Assembly: GCF_000966265.1 (NCBI RefSeq)
Contig: NZ_LANF01000010.1
Span: 1-64,000, forward strand
Length of the DNA: 64,000 bases
Origin: Palaeococcus ferrophilus DSM 13482
GTDB taxonomy: Archaea > Methanobacteriota_B > Thermococci > Thermococcales > Thermococcaceae
Direction: 5' to 3'
The translations under genes and the position numbers were made by a program. Positions 2,588 to 10,637 of the stretch are shown here, in pieces. Position 1 is the stretch's first letter, and each line of letters opens with the position of its first letter. The notes below the pieces were generated by a model, which did not search any database, had not been told where the DNA came from, and saw only the letters and a program-made list of their open reading frames with translations.

Positions 2588-2944
2588 TCCCTCCCCTTTT
2601 CTACCCATGCAAAAGGGATAAATAAATGGAGATCCAAGATTCCTCTGGGAAGGGCCATGGGGAACTTCCTATATGAGCTATTTAAGAACTCTCTGGACAG
2701 GAGTCTTCTCCATGAGTATTGCCAAGAGCTCAAGGTCGAGCTTCCGTTCTAAACGCGACATGGGGGGAGGCTCGAGTTCATAAAACTCTACGTCGAGCGG
2801 TTAAAGGATAATCCGGATGGAGTGTTCAGGCAGCAGGTAAGGCTTGTAAACTCTCTTTTAAAGTCCGCTAGAGATTTCCCGCTGACAAAGGAGGAATACC
2901 TCCGGCTCAAGGGAGAGCTGAGGGAGTAAATAAAAAGGAAAAGC

Positions 2945-3967
2945 TCACTCGATCTTTGCCCCGCAGACCGGGCAGAACTTGGCCCCTTCAGGGACTATGT
3001 GACCGTTGGGGCAGCGCTTTATCTCGTGGCCGCAGTAGGGGCAGAACCTCGCTCCGGGTGGAATCGGCTTGCCGCAGTAGGGACATATCTCCTGCTGCTG
3101 GGCCTGGGCCGGAGTGGCCTGTTGTGGAGGCTGGTTCTGGTAGCCGGCCGGGGGAACTCCACCGCCGGCGTAGGGCTGGGCCGGTTGCGCCGGCTGGGCT
3201 GGGGCCTGCGGCTGCATCAGCTGTGGGATCAGAACCATTCCGGTCCCAACGGAAGCGCTCCCGCTCTTTCCGAGTTCCGCTGCCACCTGCTTCGCCGTGT
3301 CCATCTGCATAACGGTTTGAGCGTTGCCGGTCTGCATTATCCAGAAGAGCCTCTGGCGCCACTCATCTGTGGTGTTCACGCCCTCTATCTTCACATCGAC
3401 GAGTTCAAGGCCTAACCTTCTGAAGTCCTCCATGAGCTTGACCTTCACCTGCGTGCTGACCATGTCGAGGTTCTGGAAGAGGTCAACTATCGAGTAAGCG
3501 CTGAGGTGCTTCATCATGCCCTCGTTGAAGTATGCTCTGATGAACTTGGTGACGTCACCTGTATCGTAAAGGCTCTGGCCGCCGACCACCTCAGTCAGGA
3601 AGAGAACCGGATCGGCAACCTTGAACCAGTAGACGCCGTAGTACTTTACCGGGGCGAGCTCCCTCGTCTGCGTCTCCCCACCGTAGCGCCCCTGGAACTG
3701 CTTCATGCTCACGAAGATGACGGTTGCCTTGAAGGGGCTGTTGCTCCCCCCCACGAGCTTGTAGAGGAGGGGCAAATTCTGCGTCGTTAGCGTATGCCTC
3801 CCCGGCCCGAGAACGTCGTAGACCTTCCCATCGCGCATGAAGATTGCCACTTCGTACTCGTGGACTATCAGCTGAGCACCCCACTTTATGACCTCGTTGG
3901 GGTAGCGCCAGATTATCTCATCCTCTCCAGGGTTGACCCATTCGATTACCTGCACCATATCACTCAC
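2945..3967 (-). CDS. SPFH/band-7-like protein (COG4260 virion-core-protein type) with a P/Q-rich linker and a C-terminal triple zinc ribbon
   Basis: 340 aa. N-terminal about 230 aa resemble SPFH proteins of the COG4260 group. This is followed by a PQAPAQPAQPAQPYAGGGVPPAGYQNQPPQQATPAQAQQQ linker and then CPYCG..CPYCG..CPNGH..CPVCG (three CxxC pairs). Confidence 0.6.
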   Translation of the reverse strand: MSDMVQVIEWVNPGEDEIIWRYPNEVIKWGAQLIVHEYEVAIFMRDGKVYDVLGPGRHTLTTQNLPLLYKLVGGSNSPFKATVIFVSMKQFQGRYGGETQTRELAPVKYYGVYWFKVADPVLFLTEVVGGQSLYDTGDVTKFIRAYFNEGMMKHLSAYSIVDLFQNLDMVSTQVKVKLMEDFRRLGLELVDVKIEGVNTTDEWRQRLFWIMQTGNAQTVMQMDTAKQVAAELGKSGSASVGTGMVLIPQLMQPQAPAQPAQPAQPYAGGGVPPAGYQNQPPQQATPAQAQQQEICPYCGKPIPPGARFCPYCGHEIKRCPNGHIVPEGAKFCPVCGAKIE

Positions 3968-4454
3968 CCGCCGCGAAACTCATCCTCTTGTTCAGAACCT
4001 CCTCGAAGGAGTTCAGCTTGTCGTCGAGGTCCAGAACCGCCATTCCCAGCGCCTGCGGGTTGGCTATCTGACCGTTTATGGCCCCGACGCCGTTCAATAT
4101 TCCCTCCGCAAGCTCCAGCATCTTCGCATCGTACTCAATGAGCTTCTTTATCTCCTCTTCCCTGAACTTTATTCTGTCGAAGTAGCCCGCGTAACCGGCC
4201 TCGGCGTGCCTCACCCTGCTTTCAAGGGCCATGAGCTTCTTCCTCATAGTGTCTATCGCCATCAGCTGTTGACAGTTCACCATTGCGCACCTCTGAAGTG
4301 CCCTCTCCACCTCGCGCCTGGCCTGGGCGAGCACGTCCGCCACCTTTCCGCGGACGAGCCTGTCGTCTTCCCTCAAAAGCTCCTTCTGCTTGTAGCCGTG
4401 GAAGCCCGGAATGGCGAGCTCAAGTTTTTCAACTATCGAAGTTTCCTTTCCCAT
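3960..4454 (-). CDS. Small coiled-coil protein in the SPFH operon (possibly PspA/ESCRT-III-like, unproven)
   Basis: 164 aa, predicted all-helical with a charged heptad pattern. Overlaps the downstream SPFH gene by 8 nt and sits 9 nt after the upstream gene, so it is translationally coupled. Confidence 0.55.
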   Translation of the reverse strand: MGKETSIVEKLELAIPGFHGYKQKELLREDDRLVRGKVADVLAQARREVERALQRCAMVNCQQLMAIDTMRKKLMALESRVRHAEAGYAGYFDRIKFREEEIKKLIEYDAKMLELAEGILNGVGAINGQIANPQALGMAVLDLDDKLNSFEEVLNKRMSFAAGE

Positions 4455-4463
4455 GTTATCACC

Positions 4464-5357
4464 TCACATCTTCCTGAAGTAGAGGTTACCTTTTCCGGTC
4501 TTCATGACCTCGCTAACCTTTCTCCTCTTCACGGAGCCCTTGGAGAATATCCCGAAGGCCCCGGCCCCCGCGGGGATTATGCTGCCCAGCAGTCCAAGGG
4601 CGCTCCCGTAAATTCCAGCGAACACCACCCCCAGAACGACCCCGGTCCCCAGCACCGCCGCGCCGAGAAGGGTGGCCTTCTTTCTTGCTTCGCCCATAAG
4701 GGGGTACTCCCCGAGTATCACCCTGCCGTCGGTTCCGTCCACGTAGCCTGTGAAGGACTCTCCGCTGTACTCGTATTGAACCTCCCAGACGGGGTAGTGA
4801 ACCAGACCCTGGTACTTTGTCTCTATCTCCACGCCGCCGAGGGACTTGTCCTCCTCCGCGGCCTCACTCCTGAGGGCGCTTTCCATAAAACTCCTTGCAA
4901 TCGCCTCGGCCTCCTCCTTCGAAACCTCCGGTTCGTAGTACTTCCCCTTTTTCACCACGGCCTCATCGAAGAAGCGTTTGCCCCTCACCGGGAACGGATA
5001 ACCTCCGAGGAGCCCCTTCAACGGGGAACCCGCGGGGACGCCCAAAAAGCGAACCTCCTCTATGGTCTCCCAGCGAGTGCTCCTTCCGTGGAGGTAGAAG
5101 AAGTACACGGGGACCCAGTGAAGCTCCTTCTTGGTGACCCTGGCGCCGGTTATATCGGCAGGGGCCCCGTACTGCCTCGAGAGGAACTTGAGAAGAACCC
5201 CTCCAGCGTCCTTTTTCATCGGCGGGAAGAAGAAGTGCTCACCCGTCTCCTCGCCGGTGTGAACGTGGAAAGTCGTCCCGCAGTAGGGGCACGTGGCGAT
5301 GCTCACCGTATCCGGAACCTTGAACTTTGCCGAACATGTGGGACACTGAACCTCCAT
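4464..5357 (-). CDS. Zinc-ribbon membrane protein (N-terminal CPTC..CPYC ribbon, C-terminal Gly-rich transmembrane region), paralog of the upstream gene
   Basis: 297 aa. N-terminal zinc ribbon MEVQCPTCSAKFKV...CPYCGTTF. C-terminal GAAVLGTGVVLGVVFAGIYGSALGLLGSIIPAGAGAFGIF transmembrane hairpin. Shares a HYPVWEVQYEY motif with the neighbour's LLPMWTVYYKF. Confidence 0.6.
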   Translation of the reverse strand: MEVQCPTCSAKFKVPDTVSIATCPYCGTTFHVHTGEETGEHFFFPPMKKDAGGVLLKFLSRQYGAPADITGARVTKKELHWVPVYFFYLHGRSTRWETIEEVRFLGVPAGSPLKGLLGGYPFPVRGKRFFDEAVVKKGKYYEPEVSKEEAEAIARSFMESALRSEAAEEDKSLGGVEIETKYQGLVHYPVWEVQYEYSGESFTGYVDGTDGRVILGEYPLMGEARKKATLLGAAVLGTGVVLGVVFAGIYGSALGLLGSIIPAGAGAFGIFSKGSVKRRKVSEVMKTGKGNLYFRKM

Positions 5358-5361
5358 TCTC

Positions 5362-6369
5362 TCACCCCCTCATGCCAAAGAAAGTGCCGCTCCGCTCGAT
5401 GCGCTGACCCTCAAGAACGAGCCGTCCAAAGTAGGCGCTTATCCCTGTCCCGATGAGTATAGAGAACGCGGGGAGAACCCAGCCACTTCCGGCCGTGTAC
5501 GCAACGCCAGCCCCTCCCACGAGGATTCCTAAAAGAGTACCCGCGAGGTACTGCGCGCGCCTCCATGCAGCCATCGGCTCCGTTGCCATGACGTCCTTCC
5601 CGTCCCAGCCTGCAAAGACAACGTGGAATATCGAGTTCTCGAACTTGTAGTACACCGTCCACATTGGAAGGAGCACGAGGTGAGCGTTTTGAGGCTCATC
5701 CGCCCTCACATCGAAGCGGTCTATCCTGTCCGCCTTTGACGAGTAGCGGTCCCTTATAACGTCTATCGCGTCCTCGTGCATTATGCTCTTCGCCTGTGCC
5801 TCATCCATCTCGGTGTTCAGTATTTCGAGCTTAATCCTGCCCCATTCATCTTCGTCCAGCTCGAGGAGCTTCTTTCCCCGGGGCTTCGTCTTTGAGTAGT
5901 GCCTGATCAAATCCTCCACCCCGAGGCTCTTAACCTGCCTCCTCGCGGAGCCTATGAGGTCGAGGTTCTCGTTCACCCGGTCCCTGTAGTGCCTCTCCAC
6001 CGTATGGCAGTGGGTGTTGCCCTTCGAATCGGTGTGACACTCCTCCTCCCTCACCGTGTACTCAACGATACCCTCAACGTGAACCGTTCCGACCCAGTAG
6101 GGGGCGTAGTGGCCCTCGATGTCCACGATGTCGAGCTTCTCCTTCATTCTTCTCAGATCGAAGTCCCTCTCAACGCGATCCCAGAAGGCCTTGGCCACGG
6201 CGTTCTTGTCCAGGGTGGGCACGATGTAGACCTTCTCGGTCTCCATACTGCCGCTTATGTGGTTGGGAAAACCACAGTAGGGGCATATCGCGATTATTGT
6301 CTCTGGAGAAACCTCGAGGGGTGCACCACACCTCTCGCACTTAAAACCGACCTCTTCCATGGCCATCAC
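5362..6369 (-). CDS. Zinc-ribbon membrane protein (N-terminal CERC..CPYC ribbon, C-terminal transmembrane hairpin); first gene of the operon
   Basis: 335 aa. FKCERCGAPLEV..CPYCGFPNH at the N-terminus. C-terminal LAGTLLGILVGGAGVAYTAGSGWVLPAFSILIGTGISAYF. Sits 4 nt upstream of its paralog. Confidence 0.6.
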   Translation of the reverse strand: MMAMEEVGFKCERCGAPLEVSPETIIAICPYCGFPNHISGSMETEKVYIVPTLDKNAVAKAFWDRVERDFDLRRMKEKLDIVDIEGHYAPYWVGTVHVEGIVEYTVREEECHTDSKGNTHCHTVERHYRDRVNENLDLIGSARRQVKSLGVEDLIRHYSKTKPRGKKLLELDEDEWGRIKLEILNTEMDEAQAKSIMHEDAIDVIRDRYSSKADRIDRFDVRADEPQNAHLVLLPMWTVYYKFENSIFHVVFAGWDGKDVMATEPMAAWRRAQYLAGTLLGILVGGAGVAYTAGSGWVLPAFSILIGTGISAYFGRLVLEGQRIERSGTFFGMRG

Positions 6370-6434
6370 GGTATAGGTAGGACCCTCAAGGTATTTAAGG
6401 GTGCCGGAGATTTTAATGGGTTGTAGTAATGAGG

Positions 6435-7110: not shown

Positions 7111-7536
7111 TTAAACCTTCGCCAGTCCATGGAGGAGTGCGTACTCTCTCCTGCTCCAGACCCCCGGGGAAGTCACGATGTAGAGCCTCCCCCCGTAGAG
7201 AATAACGTAGTCCTTGAGGTCATGGAGGAAACGCACGACGCTTTCGAAGCCGTTGTAGAGGACAAGGTACTCCAGGCAGTCGAGCACTACCGTGCCCTCA
7301 AAGCGCTCCCGAAGGTATTGAACTGCCTCGTGGAGAAGTTTGTGCAGCTCAGTAGGCGGTATGCCGTTAACCTGGCTCACGGGGAGTACTCGCCATCCCT
7401 CTTTCCCACGGAAACTCCGGGAGAAGAAGAGAGCATCCTGAGCCTTAACCTCATTGAGCGAACTAACCAGAAATACCCTGTCGGGGGTGTGCCGTTCGGA
7501 GGTGTCTACAACATGGCTTATGAGCTCCCCGATCAT
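7111..7536 (-). CDS. DUF835-domain protein (short form with no transmembrane region)
   Basis: 141 aa with the LDCLEYLVLYNGFESVVRFLHDLKD motif characteristic of archaeal DUF835. Confidence 0.5.
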   Translation of the reverse strand: MIGELISHVVDTSERHTPDRVFLVSSLNEVKAQDALFFSRSFRGKEGWRVLPVSQVNGIPPTELHKLLHEAVQYLRERFEGTVVLDCLEYLVLYNGFESVVRFLHDLKDYVILYGGRLYIVTSPGVWSRREYALLHGLAKV

Positions 7537-7622
7537 CGCCCTCGCCCGTATTTACCTCGAAAACAGAATTTAAGGTGTTTTTGTGTAAGTGGTTATGTAG
7601 GTGCACATGCAGGGACAGAAAC

Positions 7623-8437
7623 TCAATCCTCAAGCAGTGGGAACTCCGAGAGGAGAAGCGCCCTCTCCTTTCTGGAGAGTGCCTCAATCTCAACGAAGAG
7701 GATAACCGTGCTCCTGTGAATGTAGGCGTAGTCCTTCAGCGTGACCAGGAATTTGAACATGGCATCGAAGCCGTTCTCCAGCACCATGTACTCGAATCCA
7801 TCGAAGAGTATAACGGGCGAAACCTCGCTTTGATGCATGAAATCGAGGAGCAGGGACATCAGATAGGGCAGCCTCGTGGGGTTGACGCCTGTATCGTCAT
7901 CAACCTTCGTTATCCACAGTATGGGGGTCTTATTGAGGCCCAGTCTCTCCTGGAGCAGCTTTGGGGGGTTCTGCTTATTATAAGGCCCGGATGGCCCTTA
8001 ATGAGGAACAAAAACTCTGAATAGGCCCTTTCCCTGTCAAAAATGAGGTACAGCCCCGGACTGGGGAACTCGGTTTCATTTCCCTCGAACTCCACAACGG
8101 GTGCGAGGGTGTGGCGCTTCATGACGGAGGTTATCATCCCCGTCCACCCCACGATAAAAAGAAACACTGCAAATCCCATTAGAACGTTTCCCGCCCCGCT
8201 GAAAAGCATCACATCCCGGAGAGAAAGTCCTATGAGTCCCCAGTCATTGAGATCGAGCGGGAGGAACAGAAGCTTGGAGAATGCCGCTACGGCCCAGCCC
8301 ACGGTCATAACGTCATATGAGCGCCCGAGGGAGGGATACTTCGATACAAACCCCCGCCGATACCTGAGACTAACCACCAGCAGAACGAGGAGCATCAGCA
8401 TAAGGGATATTGAGGCCATGCCCGCAATTGGCCACAT
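7623..8437 (-). pseudogene. DUF835 membrane protein interrupted by a frameshift (N-terminal transmembrane part 7910..8437, C-terminal DUF835 part 7623..7859)
   Basis: The 175-aa ORF has 4 to 5 transmembrane helices and ends ...GLIISRTPQS. The adjacent 78-aa ORF, in another frame, carries the DUF835 core (FDGFEYMVLENGFDAMFKFLVTLKD). Together they reconstitute one full-length paralog of the 7111..7536 gene. Confidence 0.55.
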
Positions 8438-8635
8438 GGCGTTATATTTTTCAGGGCGTATCTATTTAAAAATTTTTACTAACGAGTCTTTATAGTTGCT
8501 TTTAGTTACACTAAAAAAACAACATTTACCTACCAAAATGGTGAAAGAGAAAGGGTTCACTTCAGGAACCCGGTCTTCTTTCTCGTTGCAAAATCTTTAT
8601 AAATAAAAAAATTACTGCCAATTAAAGGGATTAAT

Positions 8636-9424
8636 ATGGACCTACTGGAAGGAGTATTAATTTTTGCCTTTATTTGGGCGGGTCCCTCGGCCCTTCTGTC
8701 GGCGTGGCTTAGGACAAAATTTGCCAAAGAGAGCGCTTTAAGGGCATTCCTCGGCTCGTTGGTTATAATTACAGGTTTCATATTCGCCGTGATAGGAGTA
8801 AATGGGCTGTACTCAAAGTTTTACAGTGATGCGCTGATGGGAACTGTTCTGACAGTGTACTTTCCCCTCGCCGGAATCGTATGGGTTGGAATAGAACACC
8901 TACGAGGATACAACTTACCGCGCGCCCAGATCCTAGCAAAACTCAGCTTCCCCCTGCTGGGCGCGGTCATGGTGGGAGCGGGGGAGATATCATGGTTTAT
9001 TATGCTCCCCGTTTCATTTTTCCTTCTGGTTCTCACAATAACAATCCCAGAATTTTATTGGCCTATCGTAAGACTACTTCTTAAAAAAGTCCTGGGAATC
9101 CCCCTGAAGAAAAATCTCGGGGTTGAGCTCCTGCTAACGGTCGTTGGGTTTATTTCCGGAAGATTCGCCCGCTTTTTCCTGTTGAGAATTCTCCCAGGTC
9201 TAATGCTGTCCTCGGAAATTGGAAGTCTGCTAATATTTTCAATCATCCCGTATCTCATTATAGGCTTCTTGGATAGTCTCTTTAATTTCAAACTAAGATC
9301 AATGAATAGGGAGATAAGTTTGGAAAAGAGAGTGCTTCTCGTCACGGTATCCCTATACCTTTCGCTCGCGTTCGTAGGTTATATGTTCGTAGCATGGTAC
9401 ATCGGACTCAACGATGGAACATAA
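8636..9424 (+). CDS. Hypothetical polytopic membrane protein
   Basis: 262 aa with about 7 hydrophobic helices, preceded by a very AT-rich intergenic region (8440..8635). Confidence 0.5.
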   Translation: MDLLEGVLIFAFIWAGPSALLSAWLRTKFAKESALRAFLGSLVIITGFIFAVIGVNGLYSKFYSDALMGTVLTVYFPLAGIVWVGIEHLRGYNLPRAQILAKLSFPLLGAVMVGAGEISWFIMLPVSFFLLVLTITIPEFYWPIVRLLLKKVLGIPLKKNLGVELLLTVVGFISGRFARFFLLRILPGLMLSSEIGSLLIFSIIPYLIIGFLDSLFNFKLRSMNREISLEKRVLLVTVSLYLSLAFVGYMFVAWYIGLNDGT

Positions 9425-9449
9425 AAGCCAAAAAAGAGAAGAATAGGCT

Positions 9450-10637
9450 TCACTTCAAAAAGCCCGTCTTCTTTCCGAGGTCCTCGAAGGCGTCGAGCAC
9501 GTACTGGAGGTCCTCCTTGCTGTGGCCGGCGGAAGGTTCGAGCCTTATGCGGGCAGTTCCGAGCGGGACGGTTGGATAGACGATCGCCTGGGCGAAGATG
9601 TTGTACTCCTCGTATAAGCGCCTTGAGAACTCCTGGGCGCGCTTCTCGTCGTAGAGCATGACCGGCGTGATCGGGTGCTTGGTTCCTCCGAGGTCGTAGC
9701 CGAGCTCTCTCAAGCCGTTCTGGAGGAAGTGGGTGTTGTCCCAGAGCTTCCTGACGAGCTCGTCGCTCCTCTGGAGGATCTCAACGGCCGCTATAGCCGC
9801 TGCAACATCAGGCGGGTTGGGCGCGCTTGAGAAGAGGAACGGCCTGGCCCTCTGGCGGAGGTAGTCAATGGCCTCCTCTGGACCGGCAACGTAGCCGCCT
9901 ATGACACCGAAGGCCTTGCTTAGGGTTCCCATCTCGAAGTCAACCCTGTCGTGGAGGTTGAAGTGGTCAACGATACCTCTACCGCTGTCACCGAGGACAC
10001 CCTCACCGTGGGCGTCGTCAATGTAGATTATCGCGTCGTACTGTTCCGCTAACTCGGCCATCTCCGGGAGCTTCGCGAGGTCACCGTCCATCGAGAAGAC
10101 GCCATCACTCACGATGATTTTCTTCTTCTTGTCCTTGTTCTCCTTAAGCCTCTTCTCGAGGTCCTCCATGTCGAGGTGCTTGTAGATAACCTTTGGCGCC
10201 CCACTGAGGCGCATTCCGTCTATGATGCTCGCGTGGTTGAGCTCCTCACTTATGAAGACTCCATCCTCACCCTTCTTGAGGAGCGCGCTTATAGCTCCAA
10301 GGTTGGCGTTGTAGCCGCTCTGGAGAAGAATGGCCGCTTCGCGCTTCTTGAACTTGGCCAACTTCTCCTCGAGCTCCACGTGGAGCTCCATCGTTCCGGC
10401 GATAGTCCTGACGGCCCCCGCTCCAACACCGTAGTCGAGAATGGCCCTTATGGCCGCGTACCTTATCTCGGGATGGGCGGCCAAGCCGAGGTAGTTGTTC
10501 GAGCACATGTTGAGGACCTTCTTGCCGTCAACGACGACCCACGGGCCCTGGGCGCTTTCGAGCTTCCTTATGGTCACGTAGAGCCCCTTGTCCTTAAGCT
10601 CCTGGAGCTCTTCCCTAATCCAGTCCAGTTTCGCCAT
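9450..10637 (-). CDS. kbl: 2-amino-3-ketobutyrate CoA ligase (glycine C-acetyltransferase), PLP-dependent
   Basis: 395 aa. Class-II aminotransferase / alpha-oxoamine synthase motifs (GTLSKAFG lysine region, SNNYLGL). Start at MAKLDW with a GGTGG ribosome-binding site. Confidence 0.85.

Follow-up and report, generated by a model that had tools for sequence, protein, structure and literature searches.

A four-gene operon on the minus strand of the archaeon Palaeococcus ferrophilus was analyzed within a 64-kb stretch of DNA, hereafter the window, in which it occupies positions 2945–6369. The operon encodes two paralogous zinc-ribbon membrane proteins, a 164-amino-acid (aa) helical protein of a family named here HEL, and an SPFH protein. 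The comparisons presented below indicate that it is probably an archaeal form of one half of the pspA-ydjGHI system of Bacillus, namely YdjG-YdjI (SamG-SamI), with the non-homologous helical protein HEL replacing PspA-YdjH. The database proteins were 100% identical to those encoded in the window. The list of open reading frames (ORFs) confirmed the arrangement described in the initial annotation of this DNA, with four minus-strand ORFs separated, in order of transcription, by gaps of 4 nt and 9 nt and joined at the end by an overlap of 8 nt. The overlap between the HEL and SPFH genes presumes a GTG start at 3967; with the ATG at 3958, which has GGTGA in front of it, the two genes would be 1 nt apart. 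As read from the DNA, the four genes are tightly coupled with either SPFH start.

The comparison locus, pspA-ydjGHI of Bacillus stercoris, was retrieved by a DNA pattern search with the sequence of a ydjG primer from the literature (PMC8581546). Pfam analysis of this locus as a control returned PspA_IM30, Zn_Ribbon_TF, TPM, and Band_7_1 with a zinc ribbon. Profiles used for remote comparison were built from archaeal and metagenomic homologues, with no Bacillus sequence included (Bacillus-free profiles).

The last gene of the operon (2945–3967, minus strand) encodes the SPFH protein of 340 aa, or of 337 aa if translation starts at the ATG at 3958. Its layout consists of a Band_7_1 domain, a Pro/Gln-rich low-complexity linker, and a double zinc ribbon at the C-terminus. 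The match to Band_7_1 (PF13421; E = 6.6e-32, 111.3 bits against a cut-off of 24) agreed with the COG4260 type assigned at first, and the C-terminal DZR (E = 4e-10; Zn_Ribbon_1/DZR at residues 295–336) had gone unmentioned. No transmembrane (TM) segment was predicted in the protein. Alignment with YdjI of B. stercoris by BLASTP extended over the full length, including the linker and the zinc ribbon (E = 3e-23, 25% identity), and the Bacillus-free SPFH profile found YdjI at 1.3e-46 (residues 9–322). The architecture reported for YdjI also comprises a low-complexity linker and a C-terminal zinc ribbon with no TM segment (PMC8581546). These matches make the 340-aa protein a homologue of Bacillus YdjI/SamI along its whole length, with the same architecture. 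A sequence search of the PDB with the SPFH protein returned nothing at E ≤ 0.01.

The first two genes encode YdjG/SamG-like proteins that are putative membrane anchors. Paralogue 1 (5362–6369, minus strand) is 335 aa long when counted from a GTG, and the NCBI annotation gives 332 aa from an ATG at 6360; paralogue 2 (4464–5357, minus strand) is 297 aa long. BLASTP comparison of the two proteins (E = 4e-12, 22% identity over 286 aa) identified them as paralogues. Both carry an N-terminal CxxC...CxxC zinc ribbon with weak matches to Pfam zinc-ribbon families, including Zn_ribbon_4/5 for the 297-aa protein, and cysteines C8, C11, C26, and C29 of this ribbon are invariant. A C-terminal TM hairpin was predicted in each, at residues 275–293 and 301–319 of the 335-aa protein, and at residues 231–249 and 253–271 of the 297-aa protein, where a basic tail follows. 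These results bore out the two zinc-ribbon and hairpin proteins of the initial annotation. Since basic residues flank the hairpins of both proteins, with Arg/Lys on both sides in the 335-aa protein, the positive-inside rule places the N- and C-termini inside, which implies that the soluble parts of both paralogues would face the cytoplasm. The hairpin loop of YdjG-like proteins is approximately 6 residues long, and almost nothing is exposed outside the membrane. Between the zinc ribbon and the hairpin, the 335-aa protein has a beta-rich central domain, and its AlphaFold2 model (predicted local distance difference test, pLDDT, 80) contained long beta-hairpins, a helix with a four-stranded sheet, and two terminal helices. 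The central domain of the 297-aa protein gave a weak PepSY match (PF03413, E = 0.0024, residues 145–214).

The relationship of these proteins to YdjG could be seen in both types of search. The 335-aa protein aligned with B. stercoris YdjG over 307 aa, from the second YdjG zinc ribbon to the C-terminal TM segment (BLASTP E = 7e-13), and the 297-aa protein aligned over 86 aa in the C-terminal beta domain (E = 8e-4). The Bacillus-free YdjG-like profile found YdjG at 4.3e-28, covering YdjG residues 51–337. On this evidence the 335-aa protein is a YdjG/SamG homologue and, more weakly, so is the 297-aa protein, which is tied to YdjG because it is paralogous to the 335-aa protein. The paralogues have the zinc ribbon and the C-terminal TM segments of the YdjG layout, and between them a domain modelled as alpha + beta that may correspond to the YpeB/PepSY-related centre of YdjG. 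Of YdjG and YdjH, both named for comparison at the outset, YdjG is thus the relative of the two paralogues, and no counterpart of YdjH was found. The earlier statement that such proteins have no assigned function in any organism was too strong, as the homologue YdjG/SamG has been studied (PMC8581546). The 335-aa protein was kept across Thermococcus, and relatives were found in Thermoprotei.

The third gene (3960–4454, minus strand) encodes HEL, and a Shine-Dalgarno-like AGGTGAT lies 5 nt 5' of its start. The protein had no Pfam match at E ≤ 0.1, and the family is without a Pfam model; no TM segment was predicted. The AlphaFold2 monomer model (pLDDT 83; predicted template modelling score 0.80) was all-helical, with helices at residues 24–59, 64–82, 99–128, and 133–162 packed in a compact bundle. 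The all-helical character proposed for the 164-aa protein was therefore retained, and a four-helix bundle took the place of the extended coiled coil. An exhaustive profile search revealed 1,770 clusters at 50% identity (E ≤ 1e-3), among them 1,052 at E ≤ 1e-10; almost all of the 1,770 were stand-alone proteins of 160–200 aa. Named members belonged to Thermococcus, Thermoprotei, Desulfurococcales, Pyrobaculum, and Culexmicrobium, and to metagenome-assembled genomes (MAGs) labelled Armatimonadota and Anaerolineae; Thermococcus kodakarensis was not one of the named hits. A scan of viral contigs for HEL returned no relatives.

Two conserved loops could be distinguished in the family: one near the N-terminus, PG(F/Y)xGYKxKExxRExDRLVR, and one in mid-protein, AGYxGxFD. 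Residues P16, G17, G20, Y21, E25, R28, D31, R35, G87, Y88, D109, and R157 were at least 94% conserved among 159 non-redundant sequences. These residues fall within the two Gly/Tyr-rich loops, where the model is at its least confident, a combination that would be expected of an interface that becomes ordered on binding. The loops resemble each other (G-F/Y-x-G-Y-x5-F/L-R-E-D/E-D/E at residues 15–35 and 85–105), each is followed by a helical hairpin, and hhalign aligned the N-terminal and C-terminal halves in register at G-aromatic-x-G-Y with E = 0.0046 and 0.0035, at a probability below 10%. This pattern hints that HEL may have arisen by internal duplication.

All 23 aligned HEL proteins matched NCBIfam NF047596 (LIMLP_15305) over nearly all of its 175 positions, with a best E of 2.8e-12 and, for the HEL of the window, E = 2.8e-4 and 20.8 bits. 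Since these scores lie far under the family cut-off of 210 bits, HEL is a distant relative of the Leptospira LIMLP_15305 family and not a member of it. No described function of LIMLP_15305 was found in the literature. In some members (P0181, P0174, P0221), HEL is fused to a low-complexity linker and a DZR-type zinc ribbon, as on the C-terminus of the SPFH protein, and a bacterial member (P0219) is a HEL-DUF4178 fusion. The DZR zinc ribbon common to the SPFH protein and some HEL proteins suggests a docking element.

HEL could not be related to PspA or ESCRT-III by any of the comparisons made. In Pfam, neither PspA_IM30 (PF04012) nor Snf7 (PF03357) was matched by the HEL of the window, and both were absent from the 25 families listed, of 43 in total, for the 23 HEL members at E ≤ 1; the control, Bacillus PspA, matched PF04012 at 2.1e-41. 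Sequence and profile searches of the PDB with HEL gave chance coiled-coil matches only and no PspA, Vipp1, or ESCRT-III chain at E ≤ 10. The HEL profile did not reach Bacillus PspA at E ≤ 10, and the hhalign probability between the HEL family profile and Bacillus PspA was 0.14%. The top fold matches of the monomer model were THATCH, IncA, talin rod, and CC domains, with no ESCRT-III-type entry among them, and the model has no long alpha1-alpha2 hairpin. HEL was accordingly rejected as a PspA/IM30/ESCRT-III protein at the Pfam, profile, and fold levels.

The remaining genes of the Bacillus system were sought in the window and in 91 related non-Bacillus loci scored with home-built hidden Markov models; a metagenome scan had added 80 loci. 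Neither a PspA-like ORF nor a TPM-domain (YdjH) gene was found in the window or in these 91 loci, and TPM occurred only in the Bacillus control loci. As there is no TPM/YdjH gene and HEL is not PspA, this locus lacks the half of the Bacillus system that consists of PspA and YdjH. Ravi et al. 2024 (PMC11237479) treat the TPM protein YdjH as the conserved partner of PspA and regard the two as the conserved dyad. The PspA-YdjGHI domain inventory first reported for this operon was therefore upheld for YdjG and YdjI and was not recovered for PspA and YdjH.

The gene neighborhood of HEL was conserved well beyond P. ferrophilus, as the initial annotation had invited one to check. A YdjI-like SPFH gene was located directly downstream of HEL in 77 of the 82 loci with room for it, at a median gap of 1 nt, and the adjacency was seen both in loci seeded from HEL and in loci seeded from the YdjG-like protein. 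Where there was room upstream, 32 of 56 loci had a YdjG-like gene there. A Thermoprotei MAG that was reached from its zinc-ribbon (ZnR) protein showed the order of Palaeococcus, ZnR - ZnR - HEL - Band_7_1+DZR (L099), which was also found in L013. Of the 34 complete loci, 19 had an adjacent small ORF with four TM segments (4TM), and 5 had YdjG-like proteins with their own TM segment. The 4-TM protein is approximately 100–115 aa long, has no Pfam family, and is encoded immediately before HEL or immediately after the SPFH gene. Examples were found at 5666–6004 of L001, where the order is ZnR(296) - 4TM(112) - HEL - Band_7_1+DZR; at 5669–6001 of L004, with ZnR(346) - ZnR(321) - 4TM(110) - HEL - Band_7_1+DZR; at 4640–4972 of L014, with 4TM - HEL - SPFH; and at 4582–4917 of L029. 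An archaeal metagenome contig (L012, 1–4933) carried five tandem YdjG-like paralogues (270–357 aa) followed by HEL and SPFH genes. No separate 4-TM gene exists in Palaeococcus, where each YdjG-like paralogue has its own TM hairpin, and these hairpins may represent a fused version of the ZnR plus 4-TM anchor. The YdjG-like genes and the small 4-TM protein are variable accessories, and a membrane anchor is always nearby but modular.

The link between HEL and Band_7_1 was also kept in bacterial loci. An Anaerolineae MAG had it together with DUF2207 and a ZnR protein, and an Armatimonadota MAG together with DUF4178 and an SPFH-SHOCT protein. In bacterial locus L096 (2801–4855), HEL was followed by a DUF4178 gene and then by a Band_7_1-SHOCT gene.

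Comparison with known systems placed the operon closest to pspA-ydjGHI (pspA-samGHI) of B. subtilis, with which it shares YdjG and YdjI homologues in one tight operon. The Palaeococcus operon differs from it in having no PspA and no TPM-domain YdjH in the stretches surveyed, and in having the unrelated 164-aa HEL directly upstream of the SPFH gene. Further, YdjG of Bacillus has a single TM segment, whereas its Palaeococcus counterpart is duplicated and has a TM hairpin, and the Palaeococcus operon is archaeal and without sigma-W-type regulation. By these homologies, two of the four pspA-ydjGHI parts are common by descent, and two are missing, with an unrelated protein present instead. HEL resembles PspA/IM30/Vipp1/ESCRT-III in being small, soluble, all-helical, and placed beside a YdjI-type SPFH protein, but it has no detected sequence, profile, or fold similarity to them, and its predicted form is a bundle with Gly/Tyr loops rather than an elongated hairpin.

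The combination of an SPFH gene with a small conserved partner gene follows the classical logic of prokaryotic SPFH loci, for which the NfeD-SPFH (stomatin/flotillin) pairs, such as Pyrococcus horikoshii PH1510-PH1511 and Escherichia coli YbbJ-QmcA, are examples. In contrast to these pairs, none of the four proteins had an NfeD match in Pfam, and the SPFH protein, which has no TM segment, belongs to the Band_7_1/COG4260 type and not to the stomatin/flotillin type. In contrast to a true member, HEL matches the Leptospira LIMLP_15305 family near full length but far below its cut-off. The bacterial HEL genes with DUF4178 and SHOCT neighbors are similar to the PSP-related DUF4178/Band-7-SHOCT contexts described by Ravi et al. 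2024 (PMC11237479), although both domains are absent from the Palaeococcus operon. The passages of that paper that were searched describe no HEL-like family, and published comparative work presents the coupling of YdjG and YdjI as a typical Firmicutes feature with PspA at its centre. Literature searches on COG4260, PF13421/Band_7_1, archaeal SPFH with a zinc ribbon, and LIMLP_15305 returned no account of the archaeal module. By this comparison, HEL is an undescribed family in an otherwise recognizable YdjG-YdjI arrangement.

These results show the YdjG-YdjI (SamG-SamI) pair to be an old and separable module and not a Firmicutes peculiarity tied to PspA. The module reaches Thermococci, Thermoproteota, and some bacteria; among Thermoproteota, at least HEL is present in Thermoprotei, Desulfurococcales, and Pyrobaculum. 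Its separability from PspA fits the recent finding that SamI phenotypes need no PspA. HEL, with its 1,770 clusters, is a near-constant operon partner of COG4260-type SPFH proteins and is a concrete candidate for a binding partner. The genomic pattern that joins HEL to SPFH is strong, and function is inferred from this association. Hyperthermophile versions of all components are usually good structural material for an SPFH-anchor-partner complex.

The following mechanism can be proposed for the module. The two YdjG-like paralogues would be held in the cytoplasmic membrane by their C-terminal TM hairpins, with the zinc-ribbon and beta-rich domains in the cytoplasm. The paralogues probably pair to form a four-helix TM anchor, because other lineages use a TM-less YdjG-like protein with a separate small 4-TM protein. 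They would then bring the soluble SPFH protein to the cytoplasmic side of the membrane, since the homologous YdjI needs YdjG/H for its membrane localization in B. subtilis, and there it may oligomerize, as is usual for SPFH proteins. In that bacterium, YdjG/SamG is required for the membrane localization of YdjI and PspA, and YdjI is a soluble protein whose membrane foci depend on YdjG and YdjH (PMC8581546). More recently, SamI was found to restrain SamGH signalling, with PspA dispensable for that phenotype (bioRxiv 10.64898/2026.02.06.704340). To judge by the near-obligate adjacency of HEL to the SPFH gene across phyla, the two being 1 nt apart or overlapping, HEL would act as the direct soluble partner of the scaffold, as either a client or a regulator. 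The role of the module is likely to be membrane organization, surveillance, or stress response.

Several points weigh against this reading. Identity to the Bacillus proteins was 23–25%, and the 297-aa paralogue alone matched YdjG weakly (E = 8e-4). Two-hybrid data from Bacillus favor YdjH, not found here, as the direct anchor of YdjI/PspA, a pattern that leaves anchoring by the YdjG-like proteins alone as a proposal. HEL occurred without an adjacent SPFH gene in bacterial loci L006 and L007, and in one bacterium it stood alone beside uvrA. HEL was absent from L098 (3695–7292; SPFH - ZnR - ZnR - 4TM), in which a 439-aa SPFH protein with a Pro/Gln/Tyr-rich linker of approximately 120 residues and a zinc ribbon precedes two YdjG-like genes and a 4-TM gene. 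Occurrence of HEL without SPFH, and of SPFH with YdjG-like genes without HEL, indicates that the parts of the module are separable. Past homology and synteny, each step of the mechanism is inferred.

Two alternatives retain the YdjG-YdjI homology and differ in the work assigned to HEL, which may be a PspA-like effector, a signalling adaptor, or a structural subunit, three options that stand alongside each other. In one of them, HEL is a non-homologous analogue of PspA that is recruited by the SPFH protein to bind, stabilize, or remodel damaged or curved membrane, filling that role in lineages or loci without a linked PspA. The position of the HEL gene next to a YdjI-type gene speaks for this, since YdjI of Bacillus recruits PspA to the membrane, as does the lack of PspA from the window and the related loci. 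Bacterial HEL is also fused to, or adjoins, DUF4178 and Band_7_1-SHOCT; Ravi et al. 2024 (PMC11237479) found DUF4178 in CesT/Tir-PspA operons and, in a variant of a related polyamine-operon group that has no such dyad, a band-7-2TM-SHOCT protein as the substitute. The fold matches of HEL included membrane-active four-helix bundles (IncA, the MLKL N-terminal domain, and plant CC domains), but these are generic, and four-helix-bundle matches say little on function. HEL moreover has no predicted TM segment, and no membrane-binding element was found, none having been looked for. Its conservation, which is concentrated in the two Gly/Tyr loops plus several charged residues, resembles a specific protein interface more than a lipid-binding surface. 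This alternative seems unlikely. The broader form of it, in which HEL is a new and widespread class of SPFH-scaffold partner that docks through the YdjI-type SPFH on YdjG-like anchors, stands in for PspA, and protects or remodels membranes, is equally doubtful. Thermococcales shed abundant membrane vesicles and are not known to have ESCRT-III/Cdv. If HEL did stand in for PspA, the module would be a candidate for the unexplained membrane remodelling of Thermococcales.

A SamGHI-like signalling device, with the YdjG-like proteins as sensors, the SPFH protein as a brake, and HEL as the cytoplasmic output or adaptor, can be entertained as a tentative possibility of similarly low probability. Loss of SamI unleashes chronic stress signalling that depends on SamGH and is independent of PspA (bioRxiv 10.64898/2026.02.06.704340). 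The conserved polar loops of HEL would suit a switch-like protein-protein interface, and the ZnR-HEL fusions suggest regulated docking. However, the signalling phenotype of Bacillus rests mainly on SamH, whose TPM domain was not found here, and no DNA-binding, kinase, or nucleotide-binding domain was identified by Pfam or NCBIfam in any of the four proteins. In addition, a loop of approximately 6 residues is all that the YdjG-like proteins expose outside the membrane.

The reading suggested at first, in which HEL is a divergent member of PspA/ESCRT-III and the operon is an envelope-stress system of the PspA-YdjGHI kind, archaeal and with its genes in another order, is very unlikely. It draws on YdjG-like and YdjI-like parts that are truly present by BLASTP and Bacillus-free profiles, on an all-helical HEL of modest size whose gene adjoins the SPFH gene, and on the recruitment of PspA by YdjI in Bacillus (PMC8581546). 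The profile and fold comparisons of the 164-aa protein with PspA and ESCRT-III that the initial annotation had called for revealed no similarity, with the PDB and hhalign results agreeing with those of Pfam, and the predicted bundle has helices of 36, 19, 30, and 30 residues rather than a long alpha1-alpha2 hairpin. There is also no TPM/YdjH gene, and sequence and fold together already refute most of this reading.

Some conflict systems do contain zinc ribbons and SPFH domains, and in the PADLOC scan HEL residues 14–89 weakly matched the model of a CARF+HEPN protein, Csx1/Csm6 (E = 7e-4, 17 bits), but an antiviral defence or abortive-infection system built from the SPFH protein and zinc-ribbon sensors is the least probable reading of all, because there was no confident PADLOC match and none at all for the other three proteins, the flanking genes are housekeeping genes, the genes are kept in most sampled Thermococcus species, and no viral copies of HEL were found. 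The Csx1/Csm6 match was dismissed as chance, as H83 is not conserved in the family and HEL has no HEPN-type Rx4-6H motif; beyond it, the PADLOC and PHROGs scans returned zinc-ribbon matches only.

The surroundings of the operon, which is probably the YdjG-YdjI half with HEL in place of PspA-YdjH, were also read from the sequence. A putative promoter occupies the 65-nt intergenic region at 6370–6434 (minus strand), in which a TATA-like TTAAATA at approximately 6392–6398 lies about 25–30 nt 5' of the first gene. A putative archaeal terminator (2915–2944, minus strand) consists of the T-rich tract TTTTCCTTTTTATTT directly 3' of the SPFH stop. The TATA-like site and the oligo-T tract are consistent with one transcription unit. 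The operon genes were kept in most sampled Thermococcus species at 65–90% identity, and the flanking genes are housekeeping genes encoding a HAD hydrolase, an M42 peptidase, a class I lysyl-tRNA synthetase, and FAD oxidoreductases.

In several archaeal lineages, a gene for an FAD-dependent oxidoreductase or a geranylgeranyl-reductase-like gene is located just upstream of the module (L001, 3463–4625; L014, 3283–4638; L027, 5127–6494; L029, 865–2247; L042, 4716–6143), and a class I lysyl-tRNA synthetase gene is located just downstream in several. A link to lipid biosynthesis through the upstream genes was considered and not used, as they occur in only some lineages and UbiD or GH3 is found there in others.

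A spacer of 357 nt (2588–2944) extends from the SPFH stop to the convergent M42 peptidase gene and contains no ORF of 60 aa. Two short plus-strand ORFs within it (2657–2752, 31 aa; 2822–2929, 35 aa) may be what is left of a small gene that has decayed. On the minus strand at 7111–8437, two adjoining DUF835 ORFs are accompanied by a 175-aa hydrophobic-looking ORF. The 141-aa DUF835 ORF (7111–7536) spans model positions 21–133 of 136, and the 78-aa DUF835 ORF (7623–7859) matches the C-terminal half of the model only. The 175-aa ORF (7910–8437), which had no Pfam match, precedes the 78-aa ORF, and this pair could derive from one membrane-DUF835 gene that was split or frameshifted. The G+C content of the window falls to 0.44–0.48 at approximately 8000–9500, compared with 0.55–0.60 in the flanks, and this region contains a 262-aa hydrophobic-looking ORF on the plus strand (8636–9424).

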